Virus record (IMG/VR): IMGVR_UViG_3300025018_000001
Strand: one strand, 5' to 3'
DNA from: a virus
Lineage: Duplodnaviria; Caudoviricetes
Length of the DNA: 64,000 nt
Positions 1,170-62,296 of this stretch are shown one piece after another. Both the position numbers and the translations under genes were made by a program. The first letter of the stretch is position 1. Each line of letters opens with the position of its first letter. The notes under the pieces were generated by a model. It saw nothing but the letters and a program-made list of their open reading frames with translations. It had not been told where the DNA came from and did not search any database.

Positions 1170-1497
1170 TTAATTCCACCTCCTTTAAAGAGGAGTATTT
1201 ACCACATGACCTACAAATAACACCAACTGCATTGGTATGCACTAATACTTCAGCGTCACAGTTAGCACATAATTTAATAGTAGTTTTCTTTGCACCACTA
1301 AATGTAGGTTTAGAAAAAGAAAATGGAAGGTTTTTATGTTTATCTACAAAAGAGGATTCTTTATGAATTCTTGCATTGTGTTTAGCTACACCACCCTCTG
1401 GTTCGTATCTTCTTGGTGCACCTGGGGCCAACTCAGAAGACACTGTAGTTTTAGCTACAAACTTATTTAGATCTTTTTTAAAGGTTTCATTAACCAT
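1162..1497 (-). CDS. Hypothetical protein with C-terminal zinc ribbon
   Basis: CANC...CRSC motif; overlaps neighbours in operon fashion. Confidence 0.6.
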   Translation of the reverse strand: MVNETFKKDLNKFVAKTTVSSELAPGAPRRYEPEGGVAKHNARIHKESSFVDKHKNLPFSFSKPTFSGAKKTTIKLCANCDAEVLVHTNAVGVICRSCGKYSSLKEVELNG

Positions 1498-2065
1498 CAA
1501 ATCTGTCCTCTTGTTTAACTGTAAGTGTTTTTTTACTTGCTACGTAGTCAGATAAGTAAACACATAGCTCCTCTGGTGTATAATCAGATAAAGGTTTCAA
1601 CCAAGGTTTAATACTCCACGGCCCATAATGGTACCCGACACAACTTCTAATCATATTGTAGTCTTTTTCTGATACCAATTTTAAATCTCTGTAAACCTCT
1701 TCTACTAGTTTTGCCCCCAAGTCTGGGTGCCATTTCACAGTATGTCCTGACTTTTCAGTACCTTGTTTTCTAAGATCATGTAAAATACAAGCAGATATTA
1801 TCTGGTCTCTATTATGTTCACAGCTTAAACCCCTAGCAAGGTCATAGGCAATAGTTACTACTCTTTTAGTATGTATAATTGTACCATAACCTGAAAGCTC
1901 ATCTAGAGGATGGTACTTACCTGATGTAGAGGCTGGGGCGGAATAAAATATATAATCCGGTGCCATCATAACACAAACTTCTGTAAAGCTTTTTATATCC
2001 TTGTTAAAAACCAAATCTAACTCAGACTTAAGTGCTGCCAATTTCTCATCTGGAGATAATTCCAT
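1490..2065 (-). CDS. HD-domain phosphohydrolase (YhaM-like)
   Basis: PAS..GKYH...G...HT..V and ACILHDLRK HD motif; AAGGAG RBS. Confidence 0.8.
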   Translation of the reverse strand: MELSPDEKLAALKSELDLVFNKDIKSFTEVCVMMAPDYIFYSAPASTSGKYHPLDELSGYGTIIHTKRVVTIAYDLARGLSCEHNRDQIISACILHDLRKQGTEKSGHTVKWHPDLGAKLVEEVYRDLKLVSEKDYNMIRSCVGYHYGPWSIKPWLKPLSDYTPEELCVYLSDYVASKKTLTVKQEDRFDG

Positions 2066-2137
2066 AATTTCAACTCCTTTAATAAATTTAATAGAAAAAA
2101 AAACAAACCTACTTGTACATTACATACAATATTACAT

Positions 2138-2167
2138 ATTATAACACACAAGTGTAATAATTACAAG
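2138..2167 (-). promoter_or_regulatory. Sigma70-like promoter with extended -10
   Basis: Minus strand TTGTAA-17 nt-TATAAT with TG at -15/-14 (TGtTATAAT), upstream of the HD gene. The same TGTGTTATAAT occurs near 5512-5522 upstream of clpP. Confidence 0.45.
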
Positions 2168-2175
2168 TGTAAACT

Positions 2176-2233
2176 AAAAAAATTACATACCATTACAGTT
2201 TAGTATGTAACTAGCTGTAATGATATGTAATTA
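2176..2233 (-). terminator. Long hairpin followed by T-run (intrinsic terminator)
   Basis: ATTACATA/TATGTAAT and CATTACAG/CTGTAATG arms; A7 on plus strand gives a U-tract on minus. Confidence 0.55.
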
Positions 2234-2242
2234 TATTTACAA

Positions 2243-2479
2243 CTACATGTATGGTGGTAGAGCAAGCTCATCCTTATCCAATGCTATTGGTCTTATATTA
2301 GGAGAATTAGCTTCCACATTGTAACCAGGTTGTGGGAAAGACTCTCCATGGAACCTACGTAAATTGTTATTATTAGTAAGACCATCCATAAATTTAGCTT
2401 TACTATCTTCAATAAAAGGTTTCTTTTCTGTTAACCTAACCCATCTAGGTAATTGATACTCAGTTATTGATATTGGCAT
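2243..2479 (-). CDS. Hypothetical protein
   Basis: ORF in co-oriented operon. Confidence 0.55.
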   Translation of the reverse strand: MPISITEYQLPRWVRLTEKKPFIEDSKAKFMDGLTNNNNLRRFHGESFPQPGYNVEANSPNIRPIALDKDELALPPYM

Positions 2480-2488
2480 AATATCACC

Positions 2489-2806
2489 TTAGATTTTTTC
2501 GGTACTATCTTTAAATCTTTTTAAGAAGTCGTCAAACTCTTTTTTGTTTTCAATACTAGCCATAACTTTATTACCATCTGGACCTACTGGAGCTTCTTTA
2601 AAGAAGTTTGCCATGTCCATAACAAAATCAGGAATCATATCACCTTCCCACTCGTAGTTAATATTCATGTATTGATCTTTACCCTTCTTAATACCTACGG
2701 ATGCGTAATTGTAACCATTCTTACTTTTATATAAACTTACATTCATTATTTCCCCAGAATTAAATGCTAGGGCATATTTTGTATCTACCATACTTTTGTC
2801 CTCCAT
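2489..2806 (-). CDS. Hypothetical protein
   Basis: ORF in co-oriented operon. Confidence 0.6.
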   Translation of the reverse strand: MEDKSMVDTKYALAFNSGEIMNVSLYKSKNGYNYASVGIKKGKDQYMNINYEWEGDMIPDFVMDMANFFKEAPVGPDGNKVMASIENKKEFDDFLKRFKDSTEKI

Positions 2807-3381
2807 ATATAAGATAGTTGATTTCTTAGATCTTCTAATGTACCATCATTAGTGATACAAACTCTATTATCATGCGACATAAAAGATGGTAGAGCATTTT
2901 CAGATATGTGTTCTTGATTATTAACAAAAGTACGGTCTTCCCTTTCAATATGGATATGTAGACCATTTGCTTCATCTAAAACCCAATCTATTTCATTAGC
3001 AAATCTTCCATCAGTTATAATTGTATTAGCTGCGTCACTACCAAAAAGAGCATTACTTTTTATAACATTAACCCAACAGTCTGGGTTAATTTTTCTAAAT
3101 ACATCTGTACCAATAAACTGCAAAAGCTCCCTAGGTGTCCAAAATCTTTCTTGTTCTAGGTGGATAGCTGAATGTATTTTAAGCCCCTCAATAGGCTGTT
3201 CCTTAGCATCACCATATAGCTGTTCCTGGGTTAATAAAAAACACTTACCTAATATATTTTTAAGAAAATCTGCATAAGCCACAACTCTAACAGTTTTTTT
3301 ATTTTCATAAAACATATCTCTTAATATACATGCTACTGTATCCTTACCTGACCTTGCCTTACCACTTAATACTATTATCAT
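2785..3381 (-). CDS. Deoxynucleoside monophosphate kinase (T4 gp1-like)
   Basis: P-loop LSGKARSGKDT, TPRELLQFIGTDVFR, IITDGRFANE motifs. Confidence 0.85.
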   Translation of the reverse strand: MIIVLSGKARSGKDTVACILRDMFYENKKTVRVVAYADFLKNILGKCFLLTQEQLYGDAKEQPIEGLKIHSAIHLEQERFWTPRELLQFIGTDVFRKINPDCWVNVIKSNALFGSDAANTIITDGRFANEIDWVLDEANGLHIHIEREDRTFVNNQEHISENALPSFMSHDNRVCITNDGTLEDLRNQLSYIWRTKVW

Positions 3382-13713: not shown

Positions 13714-13762
13714 AATTACTCCTTACTAGTTATTGTACTACTTGGCTGTTTCAATAAAACTA

Positions 13763-13791
13763 ATTATACATCATTAGTACCTACTTGTCAA
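13763..13791 (-). promoter_or_regulatory. Consensus sigma70 promoter
   Basis: Minus strand TTGACA (13791-13786), 17-nt spacer ending TG, TATAAT (13768-13763). Confidence 0.8.
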
Positions 13792-13929
13792 TGTTTATGT
13801 ACTATATTTATTACTACTATAGAAGGTTACTAAGAAGAGATGTTTTATAAGTTGTTAACTACATTAACATATAATAACTAATATAACATGTATTTGTTGT
13901 TATGTAGTTGTTGTACTACATAACTTGAT

Positions 13930-14215
13930 AGAGAGAGTGCAGTGAGTACTTATGCCCCCCCATGTACGAAGATTAAAAAATAATACATCGCACAAGAGGG
14001 GCAGAAGAAACTTGATTAACTTGACGTCGATCGTTTGTTTCGTTTAAGGGGAATAACGTGCCCAGGTCTACCTTTACCACGCAGAGACTAGTCCTATCAC
14101 CAAGTCTCTTACCCCTTATTCTGGATGTTTCCATCTAGGACGGCTGGATGCAATTTACGCACCCTGTCAGGGTTTCCCTATTAATTTCATAGCCGGGCGA
14201 CGCTATACCTGCAAA
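13930..14215 (-). ncRNA. Structured non-coding RNA, cobalamin-riboswitch-like ends
   Basis: GC-rich ORF-free island. G.U pairs and a GAAA tetraloop favour the minus strand. CAGGT-hairpin-TTAATAGGGAA at the 5' end, AGACCTG closing strand 149 nt later, and further long stems. Confidence 0.5.
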
Positions 14216-14314
14216 GCAATTTATTTATTGTTTTAATTAAATAATTCCTAATGCACCCTCAAAGGCTTTACAAAATCAGAGGGATTTAAATATTAAGATA
14301 AGTATGTATATAAC

Positions 14315-14343
14315 AGCGTAACAAAAAAATTCTATAAAGTCAA
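14315..14343 (-). promoter_or_regulatory. Sigma70-like promoter upstream of the structured RNA
   Basis: TTGACT-17 nt-TACGCT on the minus strand. Confidence 0.45.
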
Positions 14344-14346
14344 TAC

Positions 14347-14979
14347 TTATTTTATTAACTCTTCTCTAGAACCTAAACTATCAATCGCATAATGGCAATC
14401 TATAAAGGTTGCATTTATATTTCCAGCGTTGGCGTCTGTGCGTGCTAATTTTATTTGTATCATAGAGGATAAACCTTTACCTGTAGTTGATATATCCCCA
14501 AGACGTGATATTTGGTTTAATGTACCAGAGGTATAAGTAAAAGAATTAACACCTGCAGTGGCAGTATTAACTACTATATTAGATGACCATGTAGTTACTT
14601 TAGGTTGGCCTTGTCCCTGAACACGGTATTTAAAGGTAAATGTTCTCGCTACTGCAGAAGGTTGCTCCCAATGGATATGTAGTTTTAGTGGTGTATCTAA
14701 TACAGCTCTATGGCGTAGTTGCAATGTGATATCTACTATATCACCTAAAGTAGTTATAGACCCATCTGGCTGAAGCACTACACACTGCTCATCAAAATCA
14801 TAATCAGCTTTTCCTGCTACTGAGTATAGGTTAGCCCCTGTTATAGGTCCTTGTAGATCATCATACGCTGTAGCGGAGCCTTCTAGTTTCATTGAACCAT
14901 CTGGTTCTATTGTGAGTCTATCAACACCATTTCCTATATGTAGTGGGTTAGTTAAAGCTGTTACATCTATGTTTGTCAT
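14347..14979 (-). CDS. Probable virion structural protein
   Basis: T/G/S-rich beta protein, next to other tail-like ORFs. Confidence 0.45.
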   Translation of the reverse strand: MTNIDVTALTNPLHIGNGVDRLTIEPDGSMKLEGSATAYDDLQGPITGANLYSVAGKADYDFDEQCVVLQPDGSITTLGDIVDITLQLRHRAVLDTPLKLHIHWEQPSAVARTFTFKYRVQGQGQPKVTTWSSNIVVNTATAGVNSFTYTSGTLNQISRLGDISTTGKGLSSMIQIKLARTDANAGNINATFIDCHYAIDSLGSREELIK

Positions 14980-14981
14980 AT

Positions 14982-15440
14982 CTATGCTCCAATTGTAAGA
15001 TTATCACCATTAGATACTAAGAAACTTCCATCACCGTCTACTAGATAAATTGTGTTTATTATTATCTTTAGGTATTCTATGATGTGAGCAGCGTGCTCAC
15101 CAGTTTGCGCTTCTGAATAAACTAATACACCACGGCTTCCTGCAAAGAATGTGGGGCCGCTACCAAAGTTTTTTAAAGTTAATCCCGTAATTACTTTTGG
15201 TACACCTGTTGATGTGTATAAGGTATGATCTACATCATTAACCCACCCTGAATAAGTTCTATAATCATCAGAGTCCGGTAATGTGTAGGTGTCTGTATCA
15301 CCTATATAGTTTGTGGAAGAACCACTAACGTGTATTATGTCGTAGCCCCCAATAACACCTATTAGGGGTTTGTTTAACCCAACTATTAAGTGTCTATTAG
15401 GTAATATATGATGTCGTTTTAATAGTCCGAATTGAAGCAT
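14982..15440 (-). CDS. Hypothetical (possibly structural) protein
   Basis: ORF in operon. Confidence 0.5.
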   Translation of the reverse strand: MLQFGLLKRHHILPNRHLIVGLNKPLIGVIGGYDIIHVSGSSTNYIGDTDTYTLPDSDDYRTYSGWVNDVDHTLYTSTGVPKVITGLTLKNFGSGPTFFAGSRGVLVYSEAQTGEHAAHIIEYLKIIINTIYLVDGDGSFLVSNGDNLTIGA

Positions 15441-15442
15441 GA

Positions 15443-15700
15443 TTAAGCCAAATGAAATTTGCCGGAACTGGCTGGTTCATTGAGAGTTATTGTGTCTGCG
15501 CCATCAACTGTGAAGCTGTCTCCTTCTACTAAAGCTACTACTGTCTCTGTACCATCTTCCCAATTTAATGTTATATTACCATCTATAGCACAATATATTA
15601 AGTTTGCTTCAAAACTACCAGAGGTTAAATTAATGAACCCCTTCCTTAAGGGCATTGCTTGTACAACATTATTTTTACCAGTATAAGATAGTGTCTCCAT
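15443..15700 (-). CDS. Hypothetical protein
   Basis: AGGAGAG RBS. Confidence 0.55.
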   Translation of the reverse strand: METLSYTGKNNVVQAMPLRKGFINLTSGSFEANLIYCAIDGNITLNWEDGTETVVALVEGDSFTVDGADTITLNEPASSGKFHLA

Positions 15701-25450: not shown

Positions 25451-26299
25451 ATGGAAGCATGGACGGCGCAGTACCGTTATACTGGACCCTATAGACTGGA
25501 TGTTACGGTCAAAGGTCAGGACATGACGGGTAAGTTATTCGCACCTACTTGGGATATGGTCATGAATTATAAGGCATCCAAGGGAACGGAAGCGGATAAA
25601 AAGATTTACATTGAGCAGTACCATAAGGTAATTCTTAATGTAATCAAAAATCATCGCAAGGAATGGGATGAATTGCTGGCACGCAAGTACGTGGTGATTG
25701 TGTGCTTTTGTAAGGCAGGTGAGTTTTGTCATAGACACCTGCTAATGCATTACCTTACACAGTATGGTGCTGTATGCCATGGGGAGATTACTGACTTCTC
25801 ACGCTGGAGCAAAGAACGTAAGGTGATTAGTGAATTCAAAGGCCAATACGGTTGGGCATCCAACTTCGCGCCGTGTAAGTTCACGCATGAGAACATTGAA
25901 TATGATTCTACCGAGACATTTTATCAGGCAATGAAGTATGGGCCTAATGATATGTTGAAGATTAAGGTGGATAATAAATTCATTGAAGTCAATGCACGTG
26001 AGTATATTTCCAAACTACCGGCGGGTAAAGCCAAACGCATGGGCAAGAAAGCAAAACTGCCTTGGAACTGGGACACCCTGCGAGTGGATGTTATGGAACT
26101 TGCGTTGAATTACAAGTATGACCAGCCTTACTACAAAAGTCTGTTGCTTAGAACGGACGATGCCTTGATGATTGAAGGCAATTGGTGGCATGACAATTTT
26201 TGGGGAGACTGCTCCTGCCCTAAGTGCGAGCATATCAAAGGTGCAAATACGCTTGGTCAGTTGACTATGCGTAAGCGTGATGCACTACGGAAAGTTTAA
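25451..26299 (+). CDS. DUF488-like domain fused to NADAR (YbiA-like) domain
   Basis: VIVCFC...FCHRHLL N-terminal; F.G.Y..SNF, ETFYQAMK, LLLRT...IEGNWWHDNFWG C-terminal. Confidence 0.8.
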   Translation: MEAWTAQYRYTGPYRLDVTVKGQDMTGKLFAPTWDMVMNYKASKGTEADKKIYIEQYHKVILNVIKNHRKEWDELLARKYVVIVCFCKAGEFCHRHLLMHYLTQYGAVCHGEITDFSRWSKERKVISEFKGQYGWASNFAPCKFTHENIEYDSTETFYQAMKYGPNDMLKIKVDNKFIEVNAREYISKLPAGKAKRMGKKAKLPWNWDTLRVDVMELALNYKYDQPYYKSLLLRTDDALMIEGNWWHDNFWGDCSCPKCEHIKGANTLGQLTMRKRDALRKV

Positions 26300-44547: not shown

Positions 44548-45558
44548 ATGATTCGCTTATACTCTGGTAAATTTAATTTATTAATTGACGGGCAGTTTGG
44601 TAGCACTGGTAAAGGTTTACTCGCAAACTTTATTGGTGTATTTAACCATGTCGATATTGCCGTAAGTAATGCCAGCTCTAATGCGGGTCATACCTTTTAT
44701 GACGCTGATGGGAAGAAAATTATTGTGAAACATCTACCTGTCAGCGGCATAGTAAACAAACGCAGCTTAATTTATTTATGTGCTGGGTCTATAATTGATC
44801 TCGAAATTCTATTAAAAGAAATAGAGGAAAACAATATCGACCATGCCAGAATAGCTATACACCCACGAGCTGCAGTGATTTCCAAGAAGGACATTGAAGA
44901 AGAGAAGTTAAACAACAATGGTGTAAAGAAAATTGCATCCACAATGAGTGGGGTAGGTAGTGCATTAGTTAACAAAATAAATAGAGCCGCTAAGCTTGCT
45001 AAAGATATACCAGAACTTAGTAGATATATTTCAGAAGTTGACCTGCATTATTATATGCAACAAGGATGTACGGTACTAATGGAGGTACCTCAAGGTCTTG
45101 ACTTATCATTAAATCATGGCTTAGCTTATCCATACTGTACAAGTCGTGATATTACAATAGCAGCTGCTATGAATGACGCCGGTGTCCACCCTAAATGGTT
45201 AGGAAAGGTTGCTGTATCAATACGGACCTTTCCAATAAGGGTTGGTAATGTAGTCGAGAATGGTATTGAAGTTGGTTACTCAGGTCCATTTTATCCAGAT
45301 AGTGTTGAAACATCTTGGGAAAAATTAGGCTTACCAAAAGAATTTACCACTCGTACTAATCGTGTCAGAAGAGTTGCTACATTCTCACATATTCAGTATA
45401 AAAGAATGTTAGATTTACTATCGCCTGATTATGTATTCCTTAATTTCTGTAATTATTTAACAAGAAAAAAGATTGATGATATGTTAAAAATATTACCAGA
45501 GGTTACACATGTAGGTTTTGGTCCTACTATTAATGATATTCTACCTGTTAACAGGTAA
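44548..45558 (+). CDS. purZ: PurZ-like (2-aminoadenine pathway) adenylosuccinate-synthetase homologue
   Basis: GQFGSTGKG (Ser where PurA has the catalytic Asp of GDEGKG), NAGHT, YPYCTSRD, PIRVG, RRV..FS, FLNFCNY, GFGPT.ND; short 336-aa PurZ-type length. Confidence 0.8.
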   Translation: MIRLYSGKFNLLIDGQFGSTGKGLLANFIGVFNHVDIAVSNASSNAGHTFYDADGKKIIVKHLPVSGIVNKRSLIYLCAGSIIDLEILLKEIEENNIDHARIAIHPRAAVISKKDIEEEKLNNNGVKKIASTMSGVGSALVNKINRAAKLAKDIPELSRYISEVDLHYYMQQGCTVLMEVPQGLDLSLNHGLAYPYCTSRDITIAAAMNDAGVHPKWLGKVAVSIRTFPIRVGNVVENGIEVGYSGPFYPDSVETSWEKLGLPKEFTTRTNRVRRVATFSHIQYKRMLDLLSPDYVFLNFCNYLTRKKIDDMLKILPEVTHVGFGPTINDILPVNR

Positions 45559-45978: not shown

Positions 45979-46182
45979 TTATGGGCGGCTGGCAAATAAC
46001 CCTAACGGTTTGGATACTTATACAAACTGTAGTAAAGATGTGGATGATACCACCACTGTATAAACAATTAGCCATACCAAACGGTGGAAGAAATGGCGCT
46101 ATGGTAGGCACTTTTCTTTGGGGTGCTACAACTATATTTATACTTTATATGGCTGGTTTTTACAGTTAATTGGAGAAATACA

Positions 46183-47331
46183 ATGTATGAACACTTGCAT
46201 AAACCATTTATTACTACTTATGGGAAGCCCTTTGTTAACTATGCTCAAATGTTAGAACAAGGGGCTGCAGAACAAATGTCTGAAGTACTGAGACATGATT
46301 GGGTTATAAAAGGCGCTCTCATGCCAGATGCTCATCAAGGGTATACATTACCGATAGGTGGTGTAATAGCATGTAAAAATATGATAAGCGCCGCTTGTGT
46401 AGGTGTTGATATAGGTTGTGGTGTATGTGCACAACTTACATCTATGGACCCAGATATACTTAAAGATAACAAATTTGCAATAAGAGATGCAATACTTAAA
46501 GCAATACCGCACGGTTTTAATCACCAACTTTCTGCGCAAAAATGGCCTGAGTATTATACACTTGACAAAACTGATTGGTTTGATGGTTTCTTCCATGCAA
46601 AAAATGGTTTTAATCAACTTGGTACCCTTGGTGGAGGTAACCACTTCATCGAAGTTGGTATTGATGAGATGAATGAAGTGTGGATTGTGATACATTCAGG
46701 TAGTAGAGGTGTAGGCAATAACACCGCAGAAAGTTACATAGCAGAAATGAAACCAGTTAATGCACCAAAAAACGGTATGTATGGTGTACCATTTGATAGC
46801 GACCTTGGCCAGGCTTATTACAAAGATATGAATGTTTTGCTAGCTTTTGCCCTTGAAAATCGTGTACAAATGATTACAAAAGTCATGGAAGTGCTTACTA
46901 CTTTTGATCCAAAAATCGGCAAGTCCGAGTTATTTATCAATCGTACGCATAATCATGCCGAAGCTAAAGGAGACATAGTAATTCACAGGAAAGGTGCTAC
47001 ACATGCTGAAAAAGGTATGTATGGTGTTGTACCTGGAAACATGTTACATGGTTCTTATATTGTAATTGGAAAAGGTAATCCAGACTCATTATGCTCTTCT
47101 TCTCATGGCGCTGGTAGAGTTCTTGGAAGAAAAGCAGCGGAACGAGAACTTGACTTAGATGAAATGCGTAAACAAATATCGGACAGTGGTGTTGCAGCTA
47201 GTGCTGAAAAAGTATCTGACCTACAAGAAGCACCAGATGCTTATAAACCCCCTGCTGATATAATGGAATTACAAAAAGATTTAGTTGATGTAGTTCACCA
47301 CATTAAACCTTGGGTAAACGTTAAAGGATAA
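46183..47331 (+). CDS. rtcB: RtcB RNA 3'-phosphate/2',3'-cyclic-phosphate ligase
   Basis: MPDAHQG, VGVDIGCG, GTLGGGNHF.E, IHSGSRG, HNHA, HRKGAT, SSHGAGR; all metal/GMP ligands present. Confidence 0.95.
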   Translation: MYEHLHKPFITTYGKPFVNYAQMLEQGAAEQMSEVLRHDWVIKGALMPDAHQGYTLPIGGVIACKNMISAACVGVDIGCGVCAQLTSMDPDILKDNKFAIRDAILKAIPHGFNHQLSAQKWPEYYTLDKTDWFDGFFHAKNGFNQLGTLGGGNHFIEVGIDEMNEVWIVIHSGSRGVGNNTAESYIAEMKPVNAPKNGMYGVPFDSDLGQAYYKDMNVLLAFALENRVQMITKVMEVLTTFDPKIGKSELFINRTHNHAEAKGDIVIHRKGATHAEKGMYGVVPGNMLHGSYIVIGKGNPDSLCSSSHGAGRVLGRKAAERELDLDEMRKQISDSGVAASAEKVSDLQEAPDAYKPPADIMELQKDLVDVVHHIKPWVNVKG

Positions 47332-49112: not shown

Positions 49113-49128
49113 TTTGGGGTGTTACACC

Positions 49129-50112
49129 ATGGTTAATAAATTTAAACGTTTCACAAGAGACCATTTTGATTGGTATATACCATTAGTAATATGGATATTA
49201 GGTGCACTATTCTTAATAGTATTAATGAGATGGTTTGAAAACAGGTCTATATTTGAAGCGCTGTACTATTGTGTAGTTACTGCAAGTACTACAGGCTTTG
49301 GCGATATAGCACCAATAACGATAATCGGTCGAATAGGTACAATGATATATATGCTTACAGCTATCACAGCTATGGGTATATTCATAAACGCACTATTGGC
49401 TAGGTCTAAATCTCTTAATAGAAAGAAGAGGCTCGGTATGGTACAGATAAAGAAAAGTCCTAAGCTTGTTATAATTGGTTACCCTTCAAAAAGTAAAGTA
49501 CTTGGTATCGTGGAGTCAGTACGAGCTTACTGGGAAGATTGTGAAATAGTGTGTATATGTGAAGCTGAGGAAAAACCTTCCTGGATGTACGACTACAACG
49601 TGCACTTCGTAAGAGGTAGAGGTTCTCAAATAGAGATACTGGAACGTGCAAACATACTGAATGCAGAAAACATACTGATACTGGCAGAAAATCCTGCTGA
49701 TTTAATATCAGATGAACAAACATTCTCTGTAGTTACTCTATGTGAGCAAATGAATCAGGCAGCACATACAGTAGCAGAAAAGGTGCACTCCGGTATGAGC
49801 TTACTAAATCACTCTTTATGTGATAAAGTAGTAGCCGTATGCAGACCAAATGAGCTGGCTTCAGAAATAATTGACGCTGGTATTATAGATTTTATTGACA
49901 GTATTGTGTCACCCTTAACAAATGAGAGGCAAAAGAACGTATCTTCCGGTAATACTACTAAGCTGTGGCAAGATCTAGTTGTAGAGTTTTTACTTGATAA
50001 TGATATAGCCTTAGGTTTCTCTGTGGATAAAGGTAAATCTTTTGTCTTTGCACCGCCAGCAAATGAAAACATTCCTGCCAATTCAATCATTAAAGTCTTA
50101 ACACGTAAATAG
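49129..50112 (+). CDS. Potassium channel, 2TM pore plus RCK domain
   Basis: ALYYCVVTASTTGFGDIAP.T..GR pore signature; downstream LVIIG...RGRG....LERANI RCK fold. Confidence 0.88.
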   Translation: MVNKFKRFTRDHFDWYIPLVIWILGALFLIVLMRWFENRSIFEALYYCVVTASTTGFGDIAPITIIGRIGTMIYMLTAITAMGIFINALLARSKSLNRKKRLGMVQIKKSPKLVIIGYPSKSKVLGIVESVRAYWEDCEIVCICEAEEKPSWMYDYNVHFVRGRGSQIEILERANILNAENILILAENPADLISDEQTFSVVTLCEQMNQAAHTVAEKVHSGMSLLNHSLCDKVVAVCRPNELASEIIDAGIIDFIDSIVSPLTNERQKNVSSGNTTKLWQDLVVEFLLDNDIALGFSVDKGKSFVFAPPANENIPANSIIKVLTRK

Positions 50113-60872: not shown

Positions 60873-60958
60873 GTAAAACAAGTGGAAGAAAAGTATAGGA
60901 CTTTTAGTGTAATGCTAAGTTGATTCAATTATCACTTCTTCTAAATAAAGGAATAAAC

Positions 60959-62296
60959 ATGACTATAGAGCAAGAGATTATAAAAAGGTTAGATGCAGCA
61001 GGATTCCAAGTTTTCATTGTAGGTGGTGCGATTAGAGATGAAATACTTGGTTTACCTATTAATGATATTGACTTTGCCACTAATGCAAGGCCAGAACAAA
61101 TTATTAAATTGTTCAAAGGAAAAAACATAGGGGTTGTAGGTAAAAGTTTTAAAGTTGTATTTGTAGAAGGAGTACAGATAGCCACATTCAGAAAAGATGT
61201 ACAGAACGTATTCTTTAGTGCAAAATTTTGTGAGCCTGTTTACGCAGATACAATACAAGAAGACCTTGAAAGAAGGGATCTAACTATGAACGCCATGGCA
61301 AGAGATGCCGTAACTGATGAGTTCTTTGACCTACATGGTGGTGTAGATGATATTCGTAATGGTATAATACGTTTAGTAGGCGACCCTATTGAACGAATTC
61401 AGCAAGATCCTAATAGAATAGTAAGAGCCTGTAGATTACTAGCTAAAACTGAAGGAATCTTTGCACCAGAGACTTATGCAGCATTATGTGAATGTGCTGT
61501 GTATATAAAGCGACATGTTGAAGCAGAACGCCTCTGTGATGAGATTATGAAAGCTATGGAGGTAAGGACACCTTCGCTGTTCTTTAGTGCTCTACACACT
61601 ATAGGGGCGTTAAAATATATATTTCCAGCAATGGCTGACTCGTTTGACTACAGTGGAGGGGAATACCATAAAGAAACTATTGGTGAACATCTAATGATGG
61701 CTGGTGATATTATCTCACCTAGATTTCCAGTACTTAGGTTAGCTGGATATCTGCATGATATAGGTAAACCAAAAGCATTTGATAAAGAAAAAGATGGTAG
61801 TTTTAAAGCCCATGAAGCGTATGGGGCTGAGATGGCCAATAGGTACCTACGCAAATTAAAATTCCCTAATAGTATTACAAATGAGGTTGTTGGGCTGATT
61901 GATAGCCACATGCGCGTCTGCCGTGGGTTAACACCTAAAGGTATCAGACGTTTAAGAAAACATTTAGCGGACTCAAATGTAGACCCTAGAAGCTTTCTAC
62001 GTTTGAAGTTAGCTGATAGGTCTGCAAATATGTACAGGTCACCGAGCGAAATTAAACCAATAAAAGAATTAATAATTAATGCGGGTATTCGTTGTGACCC
62101 TAATGAAGTATCTGTGGTATCCTTGAAAGACTTAGCTATATCTGGTGGAGAATTAATGAAAGAATTCAATTTACCACAGGGTGCTATAATAGGTGAAATA
62201 CATAGGGCATTGTTGGAATTTATTATAGAAGAAGGCGATGAATTCAATACCTATGATATATTGAGAAATAAAGCGAAAGAGTTACTACAACAGTAA
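60959..62296 (+). CDS. cca: CCA-adding/poly(A)-polymerase-family nucleotidyltransferase with HD domain
   Basis: VGGAIRD, DIDFAT, EDLERRDLTMNA, DPNRIVR, ERL..E, LHDIGKP. Confidence 0.88.
   Translation: MTIEQEIIKRLDAAGFQVFIVGGAIRDEILGLPINDIDFATNARPEQIIKLFKGKNIGVVGKSFKVVFVEGVQIATFRKDVQNVFFSAKFCEPVYADTIQEDLERRDLTMNAMARDAVTDEFFDLHGGVDDIRNGIIRLVGDPIERIQQDPNRIVRACRLLAKTEGIFAPETYAALCECAVYIKRHVEAERLCDEIMKAMEVRTPSLFFSALHTIGALKYIFPAMADSFDYSGGEYHKETIGEHLMMAGDIISPRFPVLRLAGYLHDIGKPKAFDKEKDGSFKAHEAYGAEMANRYLRKLKFPNSITNEVVGLIDSHMRVCRGLTPKGIRRLRKHLADSNVDPRSFLRLKLADRSANMYRSPSEIKPIKELIINAGIRCDPNEVSVVSLKDLAISGGELMKEFNLPQGAIIGEIHRALLEFIIEEGDEFNTYDILRNKAKELLQQ

Follow-up and report, generated by a model that had tools for sequence, protein, structure and literature searches.

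A predicted stand-alone gene for an extended EGFOA-family RNA in a jumbo phage

Introduction

EGFOA (Rfam RF02955) is an orphan RNA family attributed to Weinberg et al. 2017 (PMC5737381), the main text of which does not carry the name. Its core of ~120 nt has only just been solved, by cryo-EM, as RNA-only oligomers of ~117-120-nt constructs (bioRxiv 10.64898/2026.07.01.735769). In that work, core-only RNAs from two members gave ordered, protein-free folds and oligomers, namely a trimer (a Veillonella RNA, ~117 nt) and a strand-swapped dimer.

The RNA that we describe here resembles the GOLLD and ROOL RNAs (PMC12286853) in belonging to a phage and prophage non-coding RNA family with several pseudoknots, self-assembly in vitro and unknown function. 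However, it matches neither of their models, its predicted length is 375 nt whereas they span ~660 to >800 nt, and no tRNA gene was found in the 64-kb window around it. To the solved EGFOA core, this locus and its relatives add a bounded, full-length gene with promoter-defined 5' ends and covarying helices outside the core. These two features define a full-length construct, with which both the function of EGFOA and the biological relevance of the published oligomers can be tested directly.

Results

The RNA gene, its promoter and its limits

The window (the whole 64-kb stretch of DNA analysed, to which unprefixed coordinates refer) comes from a jumbo phage. Its phage nature is apparent from genes for PIN-PhoH, a tail assembly protein, RtcB, a nucleotidyltransferase, a PurA-like protein and a ligase. 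Its nearest relative is a contig of 228 kb that is 86% complete and has 15 tRNA matches, and DNA identical to the window is present in aquifer and cold-spring metagenomes. Two wastewater runs labelled as RNA were flagged as probably DNA, and one of them covers the promoter; an RNA run from the corresponding spring sample yielded nothing. These runs speak neither for nor against expression. Among cultured phages none was close and none gave a DNA match, and a search of plasmids returned a single 32-nt match at chance level. The RNA lies in a large intergenic gap that is locally GC-rich (47% vs 25-30% on the flanks):

14979-14347, minus strand: 210-aa ORF, the upstream flank of the gap
13714-14346: intergenic gap of 633 bp, on the minus strand between the 210-aa and 67-aa ORFs
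14343-14315, minus strand: putative sigma-70-type promoter of the RNA (-35 TTGACT at 14343-14338, 17-bp spacer, -10 TACGCT at 14320-14315)
14308-13930, minus strand: predicted ~375-nt non-coding RNA (extended EGFOA), with ends placed from the block conserved in relatives
13791-13763, minus strand: perfect sigma-70 promoter of the next gene
13713-13510, minus strand: 67-aa ORF, the next gene downstream of the RNA

Pattern scans and look-ups of neighbouring proteins yielded 11 distinct full-length homologs, 59-90% identical to the window, with ~375 nt common to all; about nine are divergent and all come from one phage clade. One of the pattern scans returned three known loci and otherwise noise. 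Similarity to relatives in blastn starts at 14305-14308, which coincides with the transcription start predicted for the upstream promoter, and ends at ~13910-13918. This conserved block matches the limits 14308-13930 that a preliminary description, made from the sequence of the window, had given the RNA. We therefore place the 5' end at ~14308 and the 3' end at ~13930, or possibly ~13910, as predicted positions. Compared with the relative L002, the RNA is 85% identical and the adjoining coding DNA 69%.

The upstream promoter noted in the preliminary description scores below the threshold of the promoter scanner, yet it is conserved in phase: TTGAC(A/T)-17-TAnnn(T) sits 8-9 nt before the invariant ATACTTAT in 14/14 loci, with a variable spacer sequence. 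The perfect promoter assigned there to the next gene was recovered with a 12/12 match, and 10 of 12 loci have a consensus promoter downstream of the RNA. Neighbouring genes change from relative to relative. Upstream of the RNA stands a tail-like gene, a lipoprotein gene, an acetyltransferase gene, IscB with TnpA, or an integrase gene, and the gene downstream differs too. The one 53-codon frame within the 633-bp gap is not conserved in the homologs, and their comparison revealed no conserved ORF across the RNA region. Given the in-phase promoter, the varying neighbours, the next gene's own promoter and this lack of a conserved ORF, the locus is most readily explained as a single-copy phage gene that stands alone and specifies an EGFOA-family RNA of ~375 nt, an assignment of identity and gene structure that we consider highly probable. 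Because no intrinsic terminator was called on the RNA strand and no U-tract follows the 3' hairpin, we infer rather than observe the 3' end and the true independence of the unit.

The EGFOA core

A cmscan search of the whole window against Rfam gave a single match, to EGFOA, at 44.2 bits against a gathering score of 37.7. The model also exceeded its cut-off in five homologs, and homolog scores ranged from 34.5 to 46.7. Every EGFOA element (PK1, PK2, P1-P4 and the P2/P3/P4 three-way junction) is present in the window RNA, in the same order:

14153-14044, minus strand: Rfam EGFOA core, from cmscan and pair counts
14172-14168 with 14065-14061, minus strand: predicted pseudoknot PK1 (5' and 3' strands), 4/5 pairs in the window
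14141-14136 with 14070-14066, minus strand: predicted pseudoknot PK2, 5/6 pairs, invariant in 11/11; the sixth is G-G in the clade
14135-14124, minus strand: P1 (GATG-GAAA-CATC)
14117-14112 with 14051-14046, minus strand: P2 (AAGGGG/CCCCTT), two-sided change in 3/4 pairs
14109-14083, minus strand: P3 (AGAGACT at 14109-14103, AGTCTCT at 14089-14083), two-sided change in 8/9 pairs
14082-14078 with 14060-14056, minus strand: P4, two-sided change in 1/5 pairs
14077-14072, minus strand: invariant GUAAAG in the P4 loop
14069-14063, minus strand: AGACCTG, the joined 3' strand of PK2 and PK1

The window RNA also shares with EGFOA the invariant CCGU and GUAAAG..UAGACC and a setting in a large intergenic gap on mobile DNA. 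In PK2, GU-n-CUAG pairs with CUAG-AC of the P4 loop. PK1 pairs a CCCAG-type strand with CUGGG and undergoes a compensatory AU/UA swap between one group of homologs (L001, L041 and L013) and another (L004, L026 and L048). The window departs from the family in two details of the core. Its PK1, like that of its subclade, contains a U-U mismatch, and local hairpins compete with it. In addition, its clade has G for C in GUAAAG(G)UAGAC, which shortens PK2 to 5 bp and leaves the freed G to close P1. Two further families, RF02956 and RF02957, had been considered as EGFOA-associated and on checking proved not to be.

A fold that extends beyond the Rfam core

The conserved unit of ~375 nt exceeds both the 108-position model and the ~117-120-nt solved constructs: ~150 nt are added on the 5' side (H1, H2, Hb and the insert Hd), and a helix that we term PX, a long hairpin and a tail on the 3' side. 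All of the motifs listed in the preliminary description were found at its positions on the minus strand, among them CAGGT (14211-14207) and TTAATAGGGAA (14184-14174). The predicted fold is as follows:

14302-14297, minus strand: 5'-terminal CUUAUC, tentatively paired with the P3 loop GAUAGG (14098-14093)
14283-14210, minus strand: 5' domain of hairpins H1 (14283-14256) and H2 (14255-14210), folded from different sequences in each homolog
14209-14142, minus strand: upstream junction
14209-14207 with 14144-14142, minus strand: tentative GGU/GCC pairing, with one-sided change only (GGU/RCC)
14205-14190, minus strand: hairpin Hb (TATAGC at 14207-14202, GCTATG at 14193-14188), AU/GC swap in 5 sequences
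14176-14173, minus strand: GNRA-type loop
14164-14146, minus strand: hairpin Hd (GGGTGC at 14164-14159, GCATCC at 14151-14146), 4/4 tested pairs covary
14123-14117 with 14008-14002, minus strand: long-range helix PX, two-sided change in 4/7 pairs
14002-13954, minus strand: long 3' hairpin, -25 kcal/mol in the window
13953-13930, minus strand: C/U-rich tail, conserved in alignments and predicted to be single-stranded

The window RNA folds better than its shuffled versions (z -3.11; 0/100 shuffles as good). When the 65-pair model was laid on the 11-sequence alignment, 93% of cells paired, against 34-47% in slid controls. Two-sided change affects 26 of the 65 modelled pairs, a count reached by 0/500 shuffles with kinship left uncorrected; since the divergent full-length homologs are few (~9) and from one phage clade, these covariation statistics are inflated by kinship.

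H1, H2, Hb, Hd and the long 3' hairpin lie outside the Rfam model and form in every homolog. H1 has 2 pairs with two-sided change. The 3' hairpin, which had been proposed earlier, reaches -21 to -27 kcal/mol in 11/11 homologs and is built from unrelated sequences in L001 and L013. The key addition to the known fold is PX, a predicted helix that ties the 3' domain to the EGFOA core by joining the segment between P1 and P2 to the nucleotides immediately ahead of the 3' hairpin; it encloses P2-P4, an A-rich linker and a small hairpin (14032-14014). Among its nine distinct strand pairs, cognate strands pair at 6.67 of 7 positions and swapped strands at 5.58 (permutation p=1e-4, kinship not corrected). 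Compensatory swaps run from AU to UA in L004, L026 and L048 and from CG to GU in L013.

A 6-bp pairing may likewise tie the 5' end to the core. The invariant CUUAUC and the P3 loop form 6/6 pairs in 11/11 homologs, CUUAUC is the sole 6/6 partner of the loop common to all, and the pairing extends to 10 bp in L013. We propose this contact tentatively, as change occurs on one side only and a swap test was not significant (p=0.43). Among other contacts, AGGU with GCCU in H1 is compensated in L013 only, and a pairing of the 3' tail with GGUG shifts register among homologs. A kissing interaction of the Hb loop with CGAC was rejected, showing no covariation (p=1.0); CGAC folds locally.

The RNA does not match cobalamin riboswitches

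The conserved core words of cobalamin riboswitches are AAUAGGGAA, GCCACUG and the B12 box. The preliminary description had linked the RNA to this class through its termini, while remarking that CCCGC.ACUG and GCCAG were not evident. Their absence is borne out, and a search of the window RNA for GCCACUG and GCCAG found neither. The cmscan run that gave a clean EGFOA match above the gathering score overturns the cobalamin link. Cobalamin models did not match the window stretch even at E<=10, and RF00174 and RF01689 did not match three homologous phage records; in 7 control genomes RF00174 does score above its cut-off. What survives of the earlier reading is the stand-alone structured phage RNA with its own promoter, as opposed to a 5' UTR switch.

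Likeness to Cbl-I and Cbl-II (RF00174, RF01689; PMC7367189) is confined to the short words AGGU, AAUAGGGAA and AGACCUG in the same order. Unlike cobalamin riboswitches (PMC7367189), the window RNA has no P3-P6 four-way junction and no L5-L13 kissing loop, and covariation supports another topology. It also lacks GCCACUG or B12-box words and a regulated gene: we found no expression platform ahead of a cobalamin-related gene, and the downstream genes vary and have their own promoters.

The shared words are accounted for within the new fold. AAUAGGGAA overlaps a probable GNRA hairpin (GAAA or GAGA); it becomes GGGAGA in four homologs and is lost in 3 of 11 (L001, L041 and L013). CAGGU combines the last bases of hairpin H2 with a short strand, which probably pairs with the nucleotides immediately preceding the core. 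A CAGGU/ACCUG closing pair can form in 8 of 11 homologs; in L004, L026 and L048 a U-to-A change disrupts it and completes PK1 instead. We conclude from these model and sequence comparisons that the window RNA is not a vitamin B12 riboswitch and gives no evidence for a riboswitch in a phage.

Other known RNAs were considered and set aside. ARAGORN found no tmRNA, and the frame through the A-rich linker ends variably and has no tag-like end; neither a tmRNA-like tag nor a small ORF is conserved. Mimicry of ribosomal RNA was rejected at the sequence level, as similarity to 23S helix 71 and to the 530 loop of 16S rRNA scored no better than shuffled rRNA.

Distant members and the length of the family

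A looser scan recovered distant members. One of them, in the Veillonella (V. seminalis) prophage L133, is the cryo-EM sequence Vei_C1A6, identical except for two engineered 5' bases, and is flanked by a lysis-like gene pair on one side and a DNA polymerase gene on the other. Here a 12/12 promoter stands 276 nt upstream of the core, with a predicted start ~240 nt ahead of it; promoter offsets are -223 in L009, -196 in L014 and -200 in the window. No strict promoter match was obtained for the remaining 12 distant loci, and three of these have <300 nt upstream. About 295 nt are common to L139 and L142, and ~250 nt to L009 and L020. Of 14 distant members, 8 (~1.6 expected) have a hairpin with a loop that starts with RUUR, located 30-75 nt upstream of the core, and six members with this hairpin contain the exact word CCGUUAGA. 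Its candidate counterpart in the window is Hb or H2. Flanking structure of this kind may already have been noted in part in the Weinberg 2017 supplement.

These comparisons suggest that the natural RNA is about three times as long as the piece catalogued and solved so far. In a bolder and, in our view, unlikely extension, natural EGFOA RNAs would be multi-domain phage RNAs of 300-400 nt, with the Rfam model and the two cryo-EM constructs covering only their central third. The trimer and the strand-swapped dimer would in that case reflect truncation, and the full-length RNA would have an unrecognised activity (catalysis or the neutralising of a host defence) that needs the flanking domains.

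Two viral loci, L128 and L132, carry an EGFOA-like core with a compensated PK2 (CUGG/CCAG) and are probably further divergent members, L128 below the Rfam cut-off. At L003:659-783, EGFOA immediately precedes a terminase large subunit and portal-like gene pair. The leader at L133:8720-9100 holds an 11-codon ORF with a strong ribosome-binding site.

Discussion

Our sequence comparisons show that the RNA belongs to the EGFOA family, that its promoter is kept in phase, that its fold covaries and that it is independent of the genes next to it. As to what the RNA does, we tentatively favour, at somewhat less than even confidence, a stable, trans-acting RNA that binds a protein. Host sigma-70 RNA polymerase would make the RNA, which would fold into a compact particle. 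The 3' domain (PX and the long hairpin), and probably also the RNA's own 5' end, would wrap the double-pseudoknot EGFOA core, and both ends of the RNA would be shielded from exonucleases, one by the 5' pairing and the other by the 3' hairpin. Acting in trans, the particle would then offer a host or phage protein a long-lived surface to bind, as a decoy or scaffold whose working face is the invariant core (CCGU, GUAAAG and UAGAC). The presence in the phage of RtcB and a CCA-adding-type nucleotidyltransferase fits an RNA-level conflict with the host.

The invariant pseudoknot core would fit a ribozyme or a small-molecule pocket equally well. Several small ribozyme classes have invariant unpaired nucleotides at pseudoknots, and such nucleotides cluster at the pseudoknots here. 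A double-pseudoknot core could cleave or ligate, provided that it needs flanking domains missing from the constructs made so far, and the phage encodes RtcB, which joins the ends that such ribozymes leave. However, RtcB is 32 kb away, no Rfam ribozyme matched at E<=10, and full-length core RNAs were purified after 8-10 h in 20 mM Mg2+ with no cleavage mentioned (bioRxiv 10.64898/2026.07.01.735769), so that we regard catalysis as improbable. About as improbable is a sponge or sensor in trans for a small molecule other than cobalamin, for example a host signalling nucleotide. The compact pseudoknot core with invariant loop bases and the predicted stand-alone expression would suit it, but no aptamer family matches, the RNA has neither an expression platform nor a consistent downstream gene, and no ligand is reported in the cryo-EM paper (bioRxiv 10.64898/2026.07.01.735769).

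Two further roles seem to us quite improbable. If the fold were a stable chassis, its C/U-rich tail or a loop could pair with the ribosome-binding sites of host or phage mRNAs. The pyrimidine tail is indeed conserved, and in L001 and L013 it comes near an anti-Shine-Dalgarno sequence. Nevertheless, the tail is less conserved than the core and matches AGGAG sites by ~5 bp only, and it could instead be a Rho loading site. Equally improbable is a part in the phage particle or genome cycle, as a pRNA-like packaging RNA or a recombinase partner. EGFOA cores oligomerise and have been called a three-way-junction family; the element sits just before terminase and portal genes in L003 and L005, directly downstream of an integrase in L036 and L041 (a remnant in L001), and near a serine-recombinase-like gene in L139. 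However, no neighbour is constant, L139 is also defence-island-like DNA, and the 86%-complete relative G001 retains the RNA in the absence of an integrase.

A cis-acting leader (an attenuator or riboswitch, the cobalamin version included) of the downstream operon is very improbable: the RNA is on the strand of the downstream genes with no intrinsic terminator, CAGGU/ACCUG can pair in most homologs and in L133 the RNA precedes a DNA polymerase gene, but the next gene differs among relatives and usually has its own promoter, no cobalamin model matches, and the next start codon lies ~215 nt beyond the tail.

Genes and repeats around the locus

The tyrosine integrase genes directly upstream of the RNA promoter (L036:692-1528 and L041:1747-2586) are 77% identical to each other, and L001:3271-3324 retains the last 18 codons only. 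In L040, the insertion of an IscB-like gene (RRXRR, HNH) and a Y1 transposase gene (1395-3007) separates the lipoprotein gene from the RNA promoter. In this phage only, the variable region upstream of the RNA contains three ORFs (210, 152 and 85 aa; 14347-15700), and the two tested had no Pfam or PHROG match.

Elsewhere, the window encodes a NADAR/DUF488 fusion (25451-26299), a PurA-like synthetase (44548-45558), RtcB (46123-47331), an ion channel with a TrkA domain (49114-50112) and the CCA-adding-type enzyme (60920-62296). Between the RNA and the next gene, TAGTAC occurs four times in 215 bp (13715-13930), compared with 1.06 per kb across the window. In relatives the downstream promoter is likewise surrounded by GTAC-rich repeats, a possible operator array.
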